Source of the DNA: Escherichia coli
GTDB taxonomy: Bacteria; Pseudomonadota; Gammaproteobacteria; Enterobacterales; Enterobacteriaceae
Length of the DNA stretch: 64,000 nt
Direction: 5' to 3' (one strand)
NCBI RefSeq assembly: GCF_024502345.1
Contig: NZ_JALDNN010000001.1
Below are positions 1 to 38,198 of this stretch, piece after piece. The translations under genes and the position numbers were made by a program. The stretch's first letter is position 1. Each line of letters begins with the position of its first letter. Under the pieces are notes generated by a model. The model had not been told where the DNA came from. It saw nothing but the letters and a program-made list of their open reading frames with translations, and ran no database searches.

Positions 1-54
1 TGGCTGGCCGATTCTCGCCATGTGGAACTAATACGTTCGCCAAACGCTGAATAA
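1..54 (+). CDS. citT: 3' end of upstream gene, probably citrate/succinate antiporter CitT (partial; frame ends ...SPNAE-stop at 52-54)
   Basis: Open frame running off the window start, ending TAA at 52-54; citT precedes rna in K-12 gene order (from memory). Identity not verifiable from 17 codons. Confidence 0.35.
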   Translation, partial: WLADSRHVELIRSPNAE

Positions 55-61
55 ATCATCA

Positions 62-96
62 CGCCCGCCAGGTAAGCCCACCTGGCGGGCTTTTTT
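62..96 (+). terminator. Rho-independent terminator (GC hairpin cgcccgccagg/cctggcgggc followed by TTTTTT)
   Basis: Perfect inverted repeat 62-72 and 81-90 followed by T6 at 91-96, directly after the upstream stop codon. Confidence 0.7.
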
Positions 97-144
97 ATGA
101 TTTAATAGATAGTATTCAGTGTATGTATGAGTTCCACACCCATT

Positions 145-951
145 ATGAAAGCATTCTGGCGTAACGCCGCGTTGCTCGCGGTTTCTCTGCTTCCCTTCTC
201 TTCTGCCAACGCCTTAGCGTTGCAGGCAAAACAGTATGGCGATTTTGATCGCTATGTCCTGGCTCTCTCCTGGCAAACCGGATTTTGCCAGAGTCAACAC
301 GATCGAAATCGTAACGAACGAGATGAATGTCGCCTGCAAACCGAAACGACCAACAAAGCTGATTTTCTGACCGTACATGGTCTGTGGCCAGGATTACCTA
401 AATCGGTCGCTGCCCGTGGTGTTGATGAACGCCGCTGGATGCGCTTCGGTTGCGCTACTCGCCCAATCCCGAATCTACCAGAAGCGCGCGCCAGCCGGAT
501 GTGTTCATCGCCGGAAACCGGATTATCACTGGAAACGGCCGCTAAACTAAGTGAAGTCATGCCAGGAGCTGGCGGACGTTCCTGCCTGGAACGCTACGAA
601 TATGCCAAACACGGTGCCTGCTTTGGTTTTGATCCGGACGCATACTTCGGTACGATGGTACGCCTGAATCAAGAAATTAAAGAGAGCGAAGCCGGAAAAT
701 TCCTTGCGGATAATTACGGTAAAACAGTGAGCCGCCGTGACTTTGACGCCGCCTTTGCCAAAAGCTGGGGAAAAGAGAACGTGAAAGCAGTTAAGCTAAC
801 GTGCCAGGGTAACCCTGCGTATTTGACTGAAATTCAGATCTCGATCAAAGCTGACGCCATCAACGCTCCGCTTTCTGCAAACTCATTCTTGCCACAACCT
901 CACCCAGGTAACTGTGGCAAAACCTTTGTGATTGATAAAGCGGGTTATTAA
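145..951 (+). CDS. rna: Ribonuclease I (periplasmic RNase T2 family), 268 aa
   Basis: ORF 127..951; translation from MKAFWRNAALLAVSLLPFSSANA (signal peptide) matches RNase I; start refined to the ATG at 145. Confidence 0.93.
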   Translation: MKAFWRNAALLAVSLLPFSSANALALQAKQYGDFDRYVLALSWQTGFCQSQHDRNRNERDECRLQTETTNKADFLTVHGLWPGLPKSVAARGVDERRWMRFGCATRPIPNLPEARASRMCSSPETGLSLETAAKLSEVMPGAGGRSCLERYEYAKHGACFGFDPDAYFGTMVRLNQEIKESEAGKFLADNYGKTVSRRDFDAAFAKSWGKENVKAVKLTCQGNPAYLTEIQISIKADAINAPLSANSFLPQPHPGNCGKTFVIDKAGY

Positions 952-1096
952 TCCTCTGATTTACAAAACACGCTAATTCGTCTTCCATAATCATGACGAT
1001 TAAGAATTATACATAATGCGCTGCATTGAGGAATTCCCTGAATGTGACGCAAATCACTTCAAAGAGTGAGCAACAGTCAGTATCATCATGTGAGTT

Positions 1097-1130
1097 AAAC
1101 CCTCGCCGCCTGACGGTGAGGGTTTTCTTT
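1097..1130 (+). terminator. Possible terminator hairpin in the rna-rnk intergenic region (ccctcgccg...cggtgaggg then TTTTCTTTT)
   Basis: Imperfect inverted repeat followed by a T-rich run; one mismatch in the stem. Confidence 0.35.
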
Positions 1131-1179
1131 TGGGTATGTTTATCTGCGACACTCGCAGTACCGACGACATGGAGTAAAA

Positions 1180-1590
1180 ATGTCCAGACCAACTATCATC
1201 ATTAACGACCTGGATGCCGAACGCATCGATATTCTGCTGGAGCAACCCGCCTATGCTGGTTTGCCAATCGCCGACGCGTTAAACGCAGAGTTGGATCGCG
1301 CCCAAATGTGTTCGCCAGAAGAGATGCCACACGACGTGGTGACAATGAACAGCCGGGTTAAATTCCGCAATCTTAGCGATGGCGAAGTGCGTGTGCGCAC
1401 GCTGGTGTATCCGGCAAAAATGACCGATAGCAATACTCAGCTTTCCGTTATGGCTCCGGTAGGTGCCGCACTGCTGGGACTGCGCGTTGGCGATTCCATT
1501 CACTGGGAACTTCCGGGCGGCGTTGCAACCCACCTTGAAGTGCTGGAACTCGAATACCAGCCAGAAGCTGCTGGCGACTACCTGCTTTAA
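1180..1590 (+). CDS. rnk: Regulator of nucleoside diphosphate kinase Rnk (GreA/GreB-like C-terminal domain), 136 aa
   Basis: ORF 1180..1590; [20 protein letters not shown]... matches Rnk. Confidence 0.92.
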
Positions 1591-1727
1591 TCCCATCTGC
1601 ACAAGCGATAACTCGCTTTGCCCAGAGGATGCACTCGCATCCTCTTTACGCAAAATCAGCAATTTTTCCTGGTTCTCACTGTTCACTTTTGCTGCAAAAT
1701 TATTCCGTTTCGTTTGTGGGAATAACC

Positions 1728-1817
1728 ATGGCAGAAGCATTTTACATCCTGATAGGATTTCTGATTATGGCGGCGATTATCGTCATGGCTGTCCTTTACC
1801 TCGAAAACCACTCCTGA
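1728..1817 (+). CDS. yldA: Small hydrophobic protein, 29 aa (MAEAFYILIGFLIMAAIIVMAVLYLENHS), YldA-like
   Basis: ATG at 1728 inside ORF 1629..1817; single predicted transmembrane helix; position between rnk and ybdR matches the K-12 small protein YldA as I recall it. Confidence 0.5.
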   Translation: MAEAFYILIGFLIMAAIIVMAVLYLENHS

Positions 1818-1820
1818 CGA

Positions 1821-2666
1821 TCATATTGTTCCCCCCGGCATCGCATTCACCAGACCTGAAACCGCCTTCTGCGCCGCCTCTGCGCTTTGTGCACCGGGTA
1901 CCAGAATCACCTTACGGCACTCCTCTTCACGTTTTTCGAAAATCTCATATCCCCGGGCGGCCTCTTCAAACGGCATATAGTGGGTAACAATTTCTTCTGG
2001 TTTCAGTAATCCTTTCTCAATTAACGGTAATAATTCTCCCAGCCATGCGTGAACGTGGGTCTGTCCCATTTTAAACGTCAACCCTTTATCAAAGGCGTCG
2101 CCAAACAGGAAACCGTGAATAAATCCAGCGTAGACGCCCGGTACGCTAACAATGCCGCCACGCCTGACCGCCCCAATACACTGACGCAACGCTTTACCGC
2201 TGCTGCCCTCCAGTTTCAGGTTAGTCAGCACCGTTTCCGTGGTGCTGCCTTTCGCTTCAAAACCGACGGCGTCTATTACTGCATCCACGCCCCGGTGACC
2301 TGCCGTTTGTTCAATAATTGACTGTGCCGGATCGCTATCTTCATCGAAATTAATCGGGATCGCGCCGTAGCGGTCGGCGGCGAAACGCAAGCGGTAGGGA
2401 TGATGATCAACAACAAAAATCTGTTCCGCACCGAGCAACCGTGCACAGGCGATTGTCAACAATCCCACAGGACCAGCACCATAGACTGCAACGCTTGAAC
2501 CTTGTTGGATCTGCGCATTTTTTGCTGCCTGCCATGCCGTTGGCAGAATATCAGAAAGGAAAAGCGCTTTATCATCTGCAAGCAAAGGCGGTACTTTAAA
2601 CGGCCCCACATTCCCTCTAGGGACGCGGACATATTCCGCCTGCCCACCATGTTCAGTGAGAATATA
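1821..2666 (-). pseudogene. ybdR: 5'-truncated Zn-dependent MDR-family dehydrogenase YbdR; only about the C-terminal 280 codons present
   Basis: ORF 1821..2609 carries the Rossmann GAGPVG motif near its own N-terminus; homology continues in frame 16 codons further ([14 protein letters not shown]) to a TAA at 2667-2669. The N-terminal catalytic domain (about 130 aa) is absent and there is no room for it before uspG at 2773. Confidence 0.6.
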
Positions 2667-2772
2667 TTAATCACAGAAACCGTTTGTAAGGAAAAAGAAC
2701 CAGACAAATATCAGGGATAAATATTATAATCATGGTGAATGATTTGTTCATGATTAACAGGGAGAAAGGGTT

Positions 2773-3201
2773 ATGTATAAGACAATCATTATGCCAGTTG
2801 ATGTATTTGAAATGGAATTGAGCGACAAAGCTGTTCGCCACGCTGAATTCCTCGCCCAGGATGACGGAGTTATTCATCTACTTCACGTACTACCCGGGTC
2901 AGCCAGCCTGAGCCTGCACCGTTTTGCCGCTGATGTGCGTCGTTTTGAAGAGCATCTGCAACATGAAGCAGAAGAACGTCTGCAAACGATGGTCAGCCAC
3001 TTCACCATCGATCCTTCCCGCATTAAACAACATGTCCGTTTTGGTAGCGTGCGGGATGAAGTCAATGAGTTGGCAGAAGAACTGGGGGCTGATGTTGTAG
3101 TTATTGGTTCTCGCAACCCATCGATTTCGACCCATCTGTTAGGTTCTAACGCCTCGAGCGTGATCCGCCACGCCAATCTGCCTGTACTGGTCGTTCGCTA
3201 A
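2773..3201 (+). CDS. uspG: Universal stress protein G, 142 aa
   Basis: ORF 2773..3201; [42 protein letters not shown]... matches UspG (YbdQ). Confidence 0.92.
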
Positions 3202-3220
3202 CAGATAAAAGTATTTATGC

Positions 3221-3253
3221 CGCCCTGCCTGGAACATCCCGGCAGGGCTTTTT
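3221..3253 (+). terminator. Rho-independent terminator of uspG (gccctgcctgg...cccggcagggc then TTTTT)
   Basis: Inverted repeat followed by a T-run just after the uspG stop. Confidence 0.65.
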
Positions 3254-3261
3254 AATGCCAT

Positions 3262-3296
3262 AAAAAAGCCGCCAGGTTTGACCCCGGCGGCTAAGC
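3262..3296 (-). terminator. Rho-independent terminator of ahpCF (minus strand: gccgccgggg...cctggcggc then TTTTTT)
   Basis: Inverted repeat plus T-run on the minus strand, just downstream of the ahpF stop at 3322. Confidence 0.65.
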
Positions 3297-3321
3297 AATT
3301 GCAGGTGAATCTTACTTCTTC

Positions 3322-4887
3322 TTATGCAGTTTTGGTGCGAATCAGGTAGTCAAAAGCACTCAGAGAGGCTTTGGCACCTTCGCCAGTGGCGATGATGATC
3401 TGCTTGTACGGAACCGTCGTACAGTCACCCGCTGCGAACACGCCTTTGACGTTGGTTTCGCATTTCGCATCAATGATAATCTCGCCCATGCGGTTACGTT
3501 CGACTGCGCCTTCCAGCCAGTTGGTGTTCGGCAGCAGACCAATCTGGACGAAAATACCGGCCAGTTCGATGTTGTGAATATCGCCGCTGACACGATCTCG
3601 ATATTCCAGACCAACGACTTTGCTGCCGTCGCCTTTCACTTCCGTGGTTTGCGCATTCAGAATAATGTCGACGTTTTTCAGGCTGCGCAGTTTGTCCTGC
3701 AGCACCTGGTCGGCTTTCATTTCTGGCGCAAATTCCAGCAGCGTTACGTGCTCAACGATACCCGCCAGGTCGATTGCCGCTTCCACGCCGGAGTTACCGC
3801 CGCCGATAACCGCTACGCGTTTGCCTTTAAACAGCGGGCCGTCGCAGTGCGGGCAGTAGGTCACGCCTTTGGTGCGATACTGATCTTCGCCCGGAACGTT
3901 CATGTTGCGCCATTTTGCTCCGGTCGCCACGATAATGCTGCGTGCTTTCAGTACCGCGCCAGAAGCTGTTTCAATCTGATGCAGACCACCTTCAACTGCT
4001 GCTGGGATCAGTTTGCTGGCGCTCTGGCTGTCGATCACATCAACGTCGTATTCATCAACGTGAACTTTCAGTGCGCCTGCCAACTTCTGCCCTTCAGTCT
4101 TCGGTACAGAAATGTAGTTTTCGATATCAACGGTATCGAGGATCTGACCACCAAAACGTTCGCCCATCAGACCGGTACGGATGCCTTTACGTGCGGAGTA
4201 AATTGCTGCCGCTGCACCCGCCGGGCCGGAACCAACGATTAATACGTCATAAGCATCACGCTTGTTCAGCTCTTCTGCCGCACGTTTTTCCGCGCCAGTA
4301 TCAATTTTGGCAACGATTTCAGTCAACGTCATGCGGCCCTGACCAAACTCTTTCCCGTTTACGAACACTGCCGGAACGCCCATCACGTTACGATCGGTGA
4401 TTTCGTTCTGGAAGGTGCCGCCATCAATTGCAGTGTGCTTGATGCGCGGGTTCAGTACGCTCATCAGGTTCAGCGCCTGCACCACGTCCGGGCAGTTGTG
4501 GCAAGAGAGCGAGTAATAGGTTTCGAATTCAAAATCACCGTCAATATGGCGAATCTGCTCCAGCAGAGACTGCGCTTCTTTCGACGGATGACCACCGGTC
4601 CACAGCAACGCCAGTACCAGCGAGGTGAACTCATGGCCCAGCGGGGAGCCTGCAAAACGTGGCCCCTGGTTGGAACCTGGGTTGGTGATCAGGAAAGACG
4701 GCTTACGCACTGGCAAGCTGTTATCTTCTTTAAAGGTGACTTTGTCTGACAGTTCTGCGATTTCAGCCAACAGTTCCTTGATTTCTGCCGATTTAGCGCT
4801 GTCATCCAGCGTGGCAATTAACTCAACAGGCTTGGTCAATTTCTCAAGGTAAGCCTTGAGTTGAGTTTTCATATTTGTGTCGAGCAT
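3322..4887 (-). CDS. ahpF: Alkyl hydroperoxide reductase subunit F (NADH-dependent peroxiredoxin reductase), 521 aa
   Basis: ORF 3322..4917; start refined to [17 protein letters not shown]; CxxC redox motif (CPHCDGP) and FAD/NAD-binding glycine motifs present. Confidence 0.93.
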
Positions 4888-8185: not shown

Positions 8186-9242
8186 GGCTTTGTTGAATAA
8201 ATCGAACTTTTGCTGAGTTGAAGGATCAGATCACGTATCTTCCCGACAACGCAGACCGTTCCGTGGCAAAGCAAAAGTTCAAAATCACCAACTGGCCCAC
8301 CTACAATAAAGCCCTCATCAACCGTGGCTCCATAACTTTCTGGCTGGATGATGAAGCTATTCAGGCCTGGTATGAGTCAGCAACACCTTCTTCACGAGGC
8401 AGACCTCAGCGCTATTCTGACCTTGCCATCACGACTGTGCTGGTCATTAAACGCGTATTCAGGCTGACCCTGCGCGCTGCGCAGGGCTTTATTGATTCCA
8501 TTTTTTCTCTGATGAACGTTCCGCTACGCTGCCCGGATTACAGCTGTGTCAGCAGGCGGGCAAAGTCGGTTAATGTCAGTTTCAAAACGCCCACCCGGGG
8601 TGAAATCGCACACCTGGTAATTGATTCCACCGGGCTGAAGGTCTTCGGTGAAGGCGAGTGGAAAGTCAAAAAGCATGGCCAGGAACGCCGCCGTATCTGG
8701 CGTAAGCTGCATCTCGCCGTTGACAGTAAAACACATGAAATCATCTGCGCTGACCTGTCGCTGAACAACGTTACGGACTCAGAGGCCTTCCCCGGGTTAA
8801 TCCGGCAAACCCACCGGAAAATCAGGTCAGCCGCCGCCGATGGCGCTTACGATACCCGGCTATGTCACGATGAACTGCGGCGTAAGAAAATCAGCGCGCT
8901 TATCCCTCCCCGAAAAGGTGCGGGTTACTGGCCCGGTGAATATGCAGACCGTAACCGTGCAGTGGCTAATCAGCGAATGACCGGGAGTAATGCGCGGTGG
9001 AAATGGACAACAGATTACAACCGTCGCTCGATAGCGGAAACGGCGATGTACCGGGTAAAACAGCTGTTCGGGGGTTCACTGACACTGCGTGACTACGATG
9101 GTCAGGTTGCAGAGGCTATGGCCCTGGTACGAGCGCTGAACAAAATGACGAAAGCAGGTATGCCTGAAAGCGTGCGTATTGCCTGAAAACACAACCCGCT
9201 ACGGGGGAGACTTACCCGAAATCTGATTTATTCAACAAAGCC
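8186..9242 (+). mobile_element. IS903-type insertion sequence (IS5 family), 1057 bp, with 18-bp terminal inverted repeats ggctttgttgaataaatc; 9-bp target duplication gcggcaaag at 8177-8185 and 9243-9251
   Basis: Terminal inverted repeats at 8186-8203 and 9225-9242; identical 9-bp direct repeats flank the element; one transposase ORF inside. Confidence 0.9.
8263..9186 (+). CDS. IS903 transposase (DDE, IS5 family); likely GTG start giving 307 aa (ORF track starts at TTG 8218)
   Basis: ORF 8218..9186; [38 protein letters not shown]... matches IS903/IS102 transposase. Confidence 0.85.
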   Translation: MAKQKFKITNWPTYNKALINRGSITFWLDDEAIQAWYESATPSSRGRPQRYSDLAITTVLVIKRVFRLTLRAAQGFIDSIFSLMNVPLRCPDYSCVSRRAKSVNVSFKTPTRGEIAHLVIDSTGLKVFGEGEWKVKKHGQERRRIWRKLHLAVDSKTHEIICADLSLNNVTDSEAFPGLIRQTHRKIRSAAADGAYDTRLCHDELRRKKISALIPPRKGAGYWPGEYADRNRAVANQRMTGSNARWKWTTDYNRRSIAETAMYRVKQLFGGSLTLRDYDGQVAEAMALVRALNKMTKAGMPESVRIA

Positions 9243-36859: not shown

Positions 36860-38198
36860 CATAAGCGCTAACTTAAGGGTTGAACCATCTGAAGAATGCG
36901 ACGCCTCGGTGCCTCGTTAAGACGATGCCTCGCGTTCTTCAATTGCGTTTTGTAGGCTGTCAGGGATACTGTCCCACGAATGGCCACCTGTAAGCTCCAG
37001 ATGACCATTTTTGTTATTCTCCACAACGAGTTAGTTCTTCTTTTCGGATCCGGCACTTCTGGGGGGGAAATCCAGCGATGGCTGGATTATGTCGTCAATT
37101 AAAAATGCGGCGAGTAGATTAGCAAATATCCACGCTTTCGCGAGTTCAGGTTCCTTTGCACGCAAAGCATCCAGGTGCAGCAAACTTTTGAGCCGCTTAA
37201 AAGCCAGTTCAATTTGCCATCGCAGACGGTAACAATCAGCCACTTGCTCTGCTGAATATTCATCTTCCGGTAATGATGTTAGCAATAGCACATGGCCCGC
37301 TGCTTCCAGCGTTTCCGCCTGAACTACTCGTCCTTTTCGACGATTCTCGCTGAGCAGTCGGGTTTTACTGATTAATGCTTTTTCGGGAGGAAGTGATACG
37401 GCAATGAGACGTGCCGGAAAGGGAGCTCCGGCTTTTTTATTACCTGAATTGCCTATCATTACAGTGGTTTCACCGTTCTTACCGCAATCCAGCCCGCGCA
37501 GAAAACCCATCATGTCAAAGCGCATTCCTTCTGCAGTTAACCAGCGCAATCCTCGCCAGTGAACCCGGACGATATAATCAGCTTCTCCAAAAGCAAGTGA
37601 GCGGATACATTCGGGACGCGAACCGAATCCCCGGTCAGCAATGCGTATCTCGTCTGCCGTTTGCGCAAATCGGTCCAGCCGTTCAGCGTCTCTGCTGTCG
37701 GTTAGCTCAAAATCAGTGAACTGACAGGTATGAGGATCATATCCCATATGTAGTCGCCATTCAGCGCTGCCGCCCCCGGGCGCACTGATTGCTGTTCCAT
37801 CGACAAGACGCAATCTCTTTCCGCTTGTACAACCCGTAACTGCGGCGCGCACAGCAAGTGTTTGTGCGGCAAGTATGCCAAACCAGTCGGCGGCATTCCG
37901 CAGCCGCTTCAGGAGAGCCACGTCAGATAATGTTGCAACGTCATGGAGCTGAGCCCATGCAGTGACTTCACGTAATGACATCCCCCCGGGGCCGTAAGCC
38001 AGCCCCAGACGTAGCAGAGTTGCAGCATCACGAATTTCGCGGCGGCGGGTTAGAGCCCCGGCATTACGTGCCGAAGTATCCAGTTCTTCGGGCTTACCAA
38101 TATGGGCCAGAATTGCTGACCAGTTATCGTGAGAGTAATTCATCGGCACGTTAAATCATATCAGGCGTAATACCACAACCCTTAAGTTAGCGCTTATG
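36860..38198 (-). mobile_element. IS186 (IS4 family), about 1339 bp, terminal inverted repeats cataagcgctaacttaagggttg; 10-bp target duplication ggattactcc at 36850-36859 and 38199-38208
   Basis: Inverted repeats at both ends, flanking direct repeat, and an InsL transposase ORF inside. Confidence 0.88.
37031..38143 (-). CDS. insL: IS186 transposase InsL, 370 aa
   Basis: ORF 37031..38149; (MP)MNYSHDNWSAILAHIGKPEELDTSARNAGALTRRREIRDAATLLRLGLAYG... matches IS186 transposase. Confidence 0.9.
   Translation of the reverse strand: MNYSHDNWSAILAHIGKPEELDTSARNAGALTRRREIRDAATLLRLGLAYGPGGMSLREVTAWAQLHDVATLSDVALLKRLRNAADWFGILAAQTLAVRAAVTGCTSGKRLRLVDGTAISAPGGGSAEWRLHMGYDPHTCQFTDFELTDSRDAERLDRFAQTADEIRIADRGFGSRPECIRSLAFGEADYIVRVHWRGLRWLTAEGMRFDMMGFLRGLDCGKNGETTVMIGNSGNKKAGAPFPARLIAVSLPPEKALISKTRLLSENRRKGRVVQAETLEAAGHVLLLTSLPEDEYSAEQVADCYRLRWQIELAFKRLKSLLHLDALRAKEPELAKAWIFANLLAAFLIDDIIQPSLDFPPRSAGSEKKN

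Follow-up and report, generated by a model that had tools for sequence, protein, structure and literature searches.

Our analysis of the window, as we call here a 64,000-nucleotide stretch of Escherichia coli DNA in its entirety (RefSeq assembly GCF_024502345.1, contig NZ_JALDNN010000001.1), makes us highly confident that a short open reading frame located between rnk and ybdR is yldA, a real, translated and annotated gene whose product is a membrane protein with a single helix. This is an already known gene, present in the K-12 annotation since a small-protein screen of 2018 and routinely called by PGAP, and as a gene find it adds nothing. What the comparison of protein families contributes is a modest, testable lead: YldA is probably a paralogue of YoaI devoid of the first five residues of the latter.

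Identity and conservation of yldA

A sequence-only reading of the window had pointed out an ATG-started frame of 29 codons between rnk and ybdR, and both the ORF list and the translation agree with it, as the frame on the + strand at 1728-1817 has 29 sense codons from an ATG at 1728-1730 to a TGA at 1815-1817 (the product is given in Table 1). Genes in this part of the window are arranged in the order rna (127-951, +), rnk (+), yldA, ybdR (-), uspG (2773-3201, +), and ahpF (-). The yldA TGA faces the convergent stop codon of ybdR (1821-1823) with 3 nt in between (1818-1820); the earlier statement that the frame ends 4 nt before that stop was correct in placing the two convergent stops next to each other, and off by one base in the size of the gap.

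Table 1. Features of the rnk-yldA-ybdR locus, with positions in the window.
Feature	Coordinates	Strand	Remarks
rnk	1180..1590	+	conserved upstream neighbor; followed by yldA in 34/80 species loci
Hairpin, presumed rnk terminator	1624..1647	+	AGAGGATGC-ACTC-GCATCCTCT, then only TT(T)A
yldA leader / possible promoter region	1648..1727	+	no consensus sigma-70 promoter in scan
Shine-Dalgarno-like element GGGAA	1718..1722	+	weak; 5 nt upstream of ATG
yldA CDS	1728..1817	+	29 codons + TGA; predicted single-pass small membrane protein MAEAFYILIGFLIMAAIIVMAVLYLENHS
ybdR remnant	1821..2649	-	convergent with yldA; promoter and CDS nt 1-410 gone (BLAST vs K-12)

The frame had also been identified as that of the K-12 small protein YldA, and this identification could be confirmed. 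Over the 281 nt of the region 1560-1840, DNA identity to E. coli K-12 MG1655 is 100%, and the same 90 nt that form the window ORF are annotated in MG1655, at 643330-643419 between ybdR and rnk, as yldA (b4734, 'protein YldA'). The peptide matches the NCBIfam model NF041476 ('small membrane protein YldA') with 57.9 bits, above the curated cut-off of 45, and the Pfam model PF23689 ('YldA-like') over its full length (1-29 of 29) with 73.6 bits against a cut-off of 27; RefSeq labels the product 'small membrane protein YldA' in the matched E. coli genomes. The name yldA comes from VanOrsdel 2018 (Proteomics; PMC6001520), where 36 small proteins are listed in Table 1, and the YldA peptide and coordinates reported there are identical to those of the K-12 counterpart of the window ORF. 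In the same study, synthesis of YldA in K-12 was documented by immunoblot after tagging the 3' end of the chromosomal gene with SPA, with the tagged protein being seen in rich-medium cultures, the sole condition tested (PMC6001520). As to the remark that small proteins of this kind are easily missed by gene callers, it is true historically, but RefSeq/PGAP now calls yldA in essentially every E. coli genome. An ORF of 29 codons is, by itself, not above chance, because 59 ORFs of at least 20 amino acids overlap the first 4 kb of the window according to the ORF list; since the short frame alone does not stand out, the reality of yldA rests on comparison across genomes and on the published experiments.

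Conservation across the Enterobacteriaceae had been set beforehand as a test on which the call could fail, and 29-codon orthologues were recovered in 34 of 80 species, with a pN/pS of 0.37. In this survey, Rnk was used as the anchor to take the locus from one genome for each of 80 Enterobacteriaceae species, and yldA was sought there by six-frame search. The orthologues have the same orientation as rnk and are about 140 nt downstream of it, are all exactly 29 codons long, and belong to Escherichia, E. albertii, several Citrobacter, Enterobacter, Lelliottia, Leclercia, Pseudenterobacter, one Kosakonia, and Phytobacter. Across orthologous loci, length is 29 codons in 36 of 36 and the yldA frame is open in 36 of 36, compared to 3-22 of 36 for the other frames; entropy at the three codon positions is 0.66, 0.48, and 1.18, the third position being the most variable, and mean pairwise pN is 0.226 against a pS of 0.616. 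In the orthologue alignment, nucleotide conservation starts at the ATG of the 29-codon form and stops at the stop codon. Judged by these alignments, YldA is under purifying selection with a fixed length across the Enterobacteriaceae.

At the protein level, M1, E3, A21, V22, L25, and E26 are invariant, while I7, A16, V19, L23, and Y24 are near-invariant, and the consensus reads M-x-E-x-L-x-I-T-L-x-F-L-I-x-x-A-I-I-V-x-A-V-L-Y-L-E-R-H-W. The first three residues of the peptide are M-x-E, residues 4-25 make up its hydrophobic core, and its C-terminal end is conserved as A-V-L-Y-L-E-(R/N/Q)-(H/R)-W; it displays the C-terminal AVLYLE motif and the 29-residue hydrophobic helix by which the YldA family is recognized. 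The single transmembrane helix predicted from the letters alone is consistent with a Kyte-Doolittle mean of 2.71 for residues 4-25 and of 2.97 for the best 19-residue window. An alignment with the 62-aa in-frame translation at its head was used for a profile search against 5.8 billion proteins; 281 protein clusters were returned, and nearly all named hits were called YldA. The clusters so named are from Escherichia, Citrobacter, Enterobacter, Lelliottia, Huaxiibacter, and Phytobacter, and named hits are all from Enterobacteriaceae except two odd labels (Vibrio cholerae and Serratia). One UniRef cluster of Citrobacter YldA was auto-named 'Protein MgtR', which is probably a misnomer.

In 46 of the 80 species, including Salmonella, the C. 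freundii complex, Kluyvera, and most Kosakonia, yldA was not found within 2.5 kb of rnk, and because of this absence the gene must be either dispensable or sited elsewhere in those genomes. In Enterobacter cloacae DSM 26481, a decayed yldA remnant ('...NLVAAVLSLKRHR') is located downstream of rnk at about 2920-3009 of the locus, with ybdR being kept. This remnant reads '...AAVLSLKRHR', and its presence suggests that some Enterobacter lineages have lost yldA recently.

Expression signals, alleles, and the truncated ybdR

A ribosome-binding site was the other feature by which the call was to be checked, and a Shine-Dalgarno-like element does precede the frame, at a position that is conserved across orthologues, and is weak in E. 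coli. The anti-Shine-Dalgarno duplex formed by the GGGAA of E. coli has a value of -4.2 kcal/mol, which is reached by 20% of random 20-mers, whereas the corresponding GGGGA of Enterobacter and relatives yields -7.9 to -8.3. A G-rich element is found at a fixed distance from the ATG in all yldA orthologues, with a median of -7.45 against a background mean of -2.3. Expression of YldA in E. coli is probably low, as is to be expected because the Shine-Dalgarno element of this species is weak.

Transcription of yldA may result from read-through of the rnk terminator or from a promoter of its own. The hairpin that follows rnk, presumed to be its terminator, has a weak U-tract, which would make read-through into yldA possible. 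In about 35 species or loci, its stem (GAGGATGC / GCATCCTC) is almost invariant, with a variable loop, no covariation, and a tail of 2-3 T. Sequence conservation of this stem is unusually strict for a terminator. On its upstream side the yldA leader is bounded by this hairpin, and the block in which the two E. coli alleles described below diverge has its left edge there as well. Rfam identified the known rnk leader (RF01771) as a full-length match at 1026-1134 (+) with 124.9 bits; if yldA were read through from rnk, this leader would control yldA too.

Upstream of the yldA ATG, a consensus scan found no sigma-70 promoter, and the promoter-like and terminator-like hits that the scan returned inside the coding sequence were taken as chance. 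No terminator was found after yldA. With Rfam, no family was returned for either strand of 1588-1830, and the scan of 1-3400 gave only the rnk leader; RNAalifold found no conserved leader RNA structure shared among 19 orthologues. A hairpin that could mask the Shine-Dalgarno element, in which TTATTCC (1700-1706) would pair with GGAATAA (1719-1725), was considered and rejected as a conserved feature, since the pairing is perfect in the K-12 type but not kept in other genera. Inspection by eye of the region upstream of yldA showed no Pho box match, as for yoaI, that was convincing or conserved. In a tiling-array study, yldA was part of a 100-gene cluster induced by NaF, along with osmotic and envelope stress genes and with phoPQ/rstAB, and ExcludonFinder reported an overlap of the convergent ybdR and yldA transcripts in no fewer than 50% of the analysed RNA-seq samples.

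The ybdR gene facing yldA is, in the window, a rare 5'-truncated pseudogene. Compared to K-12, a deletion of 507 bp has removed 97 bp upstream along with nt 1-410 of the ybdR CDS, leaving a junction at 2649/2650 and no notable microhomology at the breakpoints. Of 5426 complete E. coli genomes, just two (FDAARGOS_943 and FDAARGOS_944) have this junction, and PGAP labels the remnant as a pseudogene in FDAARGOS_943. Loss of the ybdR promoter should have put an end, in this strain, to convergent transcription reaching yldA. The truncation was not mentioned in the sequence-only reading.

Two deeply diverged types of yldA are found in E. coli. K-12-type yldA (MAEAF...) is accompanied by ybdR in 3602 of the 5426 complete genomes, while a second type, MSEALGITAFYIFIAAIIVAAVLYLEQRW, is carried by 1816 genomes at a locus without ybdR, including the ST131 strains JJ1886 and EC958, and also NC101. 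This second allele is B2-type (an example of its locus is JJ1886 positions 3562-3855), and its peptide is identical to the K-12 type at 15 of 29 residues, with the differences falling mainly in the N-terminal half of the helix. E. albertii carries second-type yldA, and most other genera score closer to the second than to the K-12 type. The divergent block extends from just after the rnk hairpin to the start codon of uspG (window 1652-2772); on its flanks, Rnk is identical and UspG 97% identical between the two types, and the uspG promoter region is completely different. A linkage between yldA and ybdR was also considered and rejected, with all four combinations of presence and absence being found among the 80 species. 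The two alleles provide a natural pair of variants for a comparison of specificity.

Probable relationship between YldA and YoaI

For every YldA variant tested, the YoaI model of NCBIfam (NF041475) was the second-best family, with E-values between 4e-7 and 2.5e-4, and in the reverse comparison the second-best NCBIfam family for YoaI was YldA (E 0.035). These matches always fall in one register, with YldA 3-29 aligned to YoaI 8-34. From a search of 1.84 billion representative proteins we collected 18 YoaI orthologues, and their comparison by hhalign with 34 YldA sequences gave a probability of 96.7% and an E-value of 3.8e-10 over 27 ungapped columns, figures to be read with the caveat that much of the similarity between YldA and YoaI lies within the hydrophobic helix, where profile methods can be over-confident. 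To control for hydrophobic composition, we used shuffled sequences and a search of six-frame segments. YoaI was shuffled 20,000 times with its composition preserved, and no shuffle reached the score of the real sequence against the YldA HMM (18.9 bits; shuffle maximum 14.1). When an HMM built from YoaI only was compared to 14,838 natural six-frame segments (517 kb), 35 of 36 YldA ORFs ranked directly after YoaI; the best unrelated segment scored 12.1 bits, and one YldA was below that value. With the YldA HMM, the best match other than YldA itself was YoaI, with 17.0 bits, the next being at 7.0. A match of 12 bits to the YoaI HMM at window 37540-37701 (+) was considered as a third paralogue and dismissed as a chance match of 13 residues in a non-membrane segment.

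Residue by residue, E8, L10, I12, F16, S26, V27, and E31 never vary among the 18 YoaI orthologues, and S26, V27, and E31 are the invariant residues of YoaI according to PMC11429745. YoaI E8, I12, S26, V27, and E31 align respectively with E3, I7, A21, V22, and E26 of YldA, all of which are highly conserved in YldA, while L10 and F16 align with the more variable YldA positions 5 and 11 (F or Y). The counterparts of Ser26, Val27, and Glu31 are all invariant in YldA, with Val and Glu kept and Ser replaced by Ala. Against NF041475, the window peptide scores 22.5 bits and the other YldA variants 21-30, and because these values are below the cut-off of 45 bits, YldA does not qualify as an orthologue of YoaI and is instead a probable paralogue. 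We also observed that K-12 yoaI (locus positions 9079-9183) abuts the stop of the convergent yeaK (8575-9078) with a gap of 0 nt, to be compared with the 3 nt between yldA and ybdR, which may be a coincidence. YoaI was reported to bind EnvZ in a bacterial two-hybrid assay and to raise the output of an EnvZ-OmpR reporter (Vellappan et al., PMC11429745), and both effects on EnvZ were abolished by the E31A and E31Q substitutions, with membrane insertion being unaffected (PMC11429745).

Possible function of YldA and comparison with known systems

Our literature search returned no report of a function for YldA, the gene being mentioned only in SPA-tag and transcriptome papers. Tentatively, and by analogy with YoaI, we suggest that YldA might modulate a sensor kinase, with EnvZ specifically being less likely as a partner than kinase modulation in general. 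According to such a model, YldA would reside in the inner membrane like YoaI, with its C-terminal L-E-R-H-W tail in the cytoplasm, and its partner would be a larger membrane protein, for which a sensor histidine kinase (EnvZ or another) is the most plausible candidate. Contact would occur via the alanine-rich side of the helix in its C-terminal half and via E26, an invariant juxtamembrane residue that is aligned to E31 of YoaI, and binding would tune the output of the signalling system of the partner. The K-12-type peptide contains no Lys and no Arg, and for this reason its topology is unreadable from charge. In a wider form of this proposal, which we regard as speculative, YldA and YoaI would constitute, in Enterobacteriaceae, a small paralogous family of kinase-modulating membrane peptides, with YldA acting as a second, hitherto unrecognized input to EnvZ-OmpR or to another two-component system, and the diverged alleles would lead to phylogroup-specific affinity or specificity for the partner. 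If this were true, YldA would add a second small-protein input to EnvZ-OmpR, a classic signalling system, and it could explain why deleting yoaI alone causes only a ~1.5-2-fold drop in EnvZ output.

Many characterized small membrane proteins serve as accessory subunits or regulators, and AcrZ-AcrB, KdpF, CydX, MgtS-MgtA, and MgtR-MgtC are precedents for partners that are not kinases. It is conceivable, although we consider it rather doubtful, that YldA likewise regulates, or is a small accessory part of, a membrane complex that is not a kinase, such as a transporter, an oxidase, or a protease, and that its likeness to YoaI reflects descent and not the partner. A lone transmembrane helix, one face of which carries conserved small residues (A16 near-invariant, A21 invariant), would fit such a role, as would the MgtR label on the Citrobacter cluster. 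No transporter or complex gene, however, is consistently adjacent to yldA, whose neighbors are rnk, uspG, and variably ybdR, and YldA is best conserved at the very residues that YoaI conserves, among them the Glu on which EnvZ binding depends.

We find it very improbable that the peptide is functionless and that the locus matters only by being transcribed or translated, for instance with a yldA transcript running antisense into the 3' end of ybdR and repressing this gene by convergent transcription (an 'excludon'). The ybdR-yldA excludon listed for half or more of the RNA-seq samples, the short distance between the two stop codons, and the lack of a terminator after yldA are in line with this idea, but selection acts on the amino-acid sequence and has fixed its length, yldA is kept without ybdR in the 1816 E. 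coli genomes mentioned above and in many species, ybdR is found without yldA in Salmonella and others, and in the window yldA is intact even though its ybdR is already a promoterless pseudogene. With equally little likelihood, YldA might be a hydrophobic peptide akin to type I toxins, membrane-damaging and normally silent. It is indeed very short and very hydrophobic, its E. coli ribosome-binding site is weak, and the TTATTCC/GGAATAA hairpin of K-12 can cover the Shine-Dalgarno element; the tagged protein, however, was detected in rich-medium cultures, the gene is single-copy, syntenic, chromosomal, and conserved across genera, the masking hairpin is not conserved, and no antisense sRNA or Rfam family was found at the locus, so that yldA does not show the cognate antisense sRNA and tight repression that define such toxins. 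Hardly credible at all is the possibility that the true product is that of a 62-codon in-frame ORF starting from an ATG at 1629 (1629-1817), in spite of the frame being open from that position in K-12-type strains and of the 62-aa versions that exist in public protein sets, including some older E. coli records as hypothetical protein. The ATG at 1629 is inside the stem of the rnk terminator, in most orthologues the conserved ATG either follows an in-frame stop by 8-16 codons or has no other start before it, conservation begins only at the ATG of the 29-codon form, and the curated models are 29 residues long.

Among known systems, the closest to the window ORF is K-12 YldA (b4734), which has the same peptide, DNA, and location between rnk and ybdR, with scores above both family cut-offs; the gene is the same at the two loci, which differ in that the neighboring ybdR is here without its promoter and first 410 nt. 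Modulation of a sensor kinase, the role we tentatively propose, would be alike in its general idea to MgrB-PhoQ, SafA-PhoQ, and MzrA-EnvZ, in that a tiny inner-membrane protein would possibly tune a two-component system (PMC11429745), although no sequence similarity of YldA to the MgrB, SafA, and MzrA families was detected and these are absent from its NCBIfam and Pfam scans. Compared to YoaI (b1788, 34 aa), YldA has an N-terminus shorter by five residues, Ala in place of Ser26, an H/R-W end where YoaI has T-G, and a different locus, and its named hits come, save for the two odd labels, from Enterobacteriaceae, whereas YoaI orthologues were reported from 57 Gammaproteobacteria. Both proteins, nonetheless, have one transmembrane helix that is immediately preceded by an acidic residue (E3 in YldA, E8 in YoaI), and over the 27 ungapped columns they have in common the pattern E-x-L-x-I-T...F...V-x-[AS]-V-L-x-L-E-[RK].
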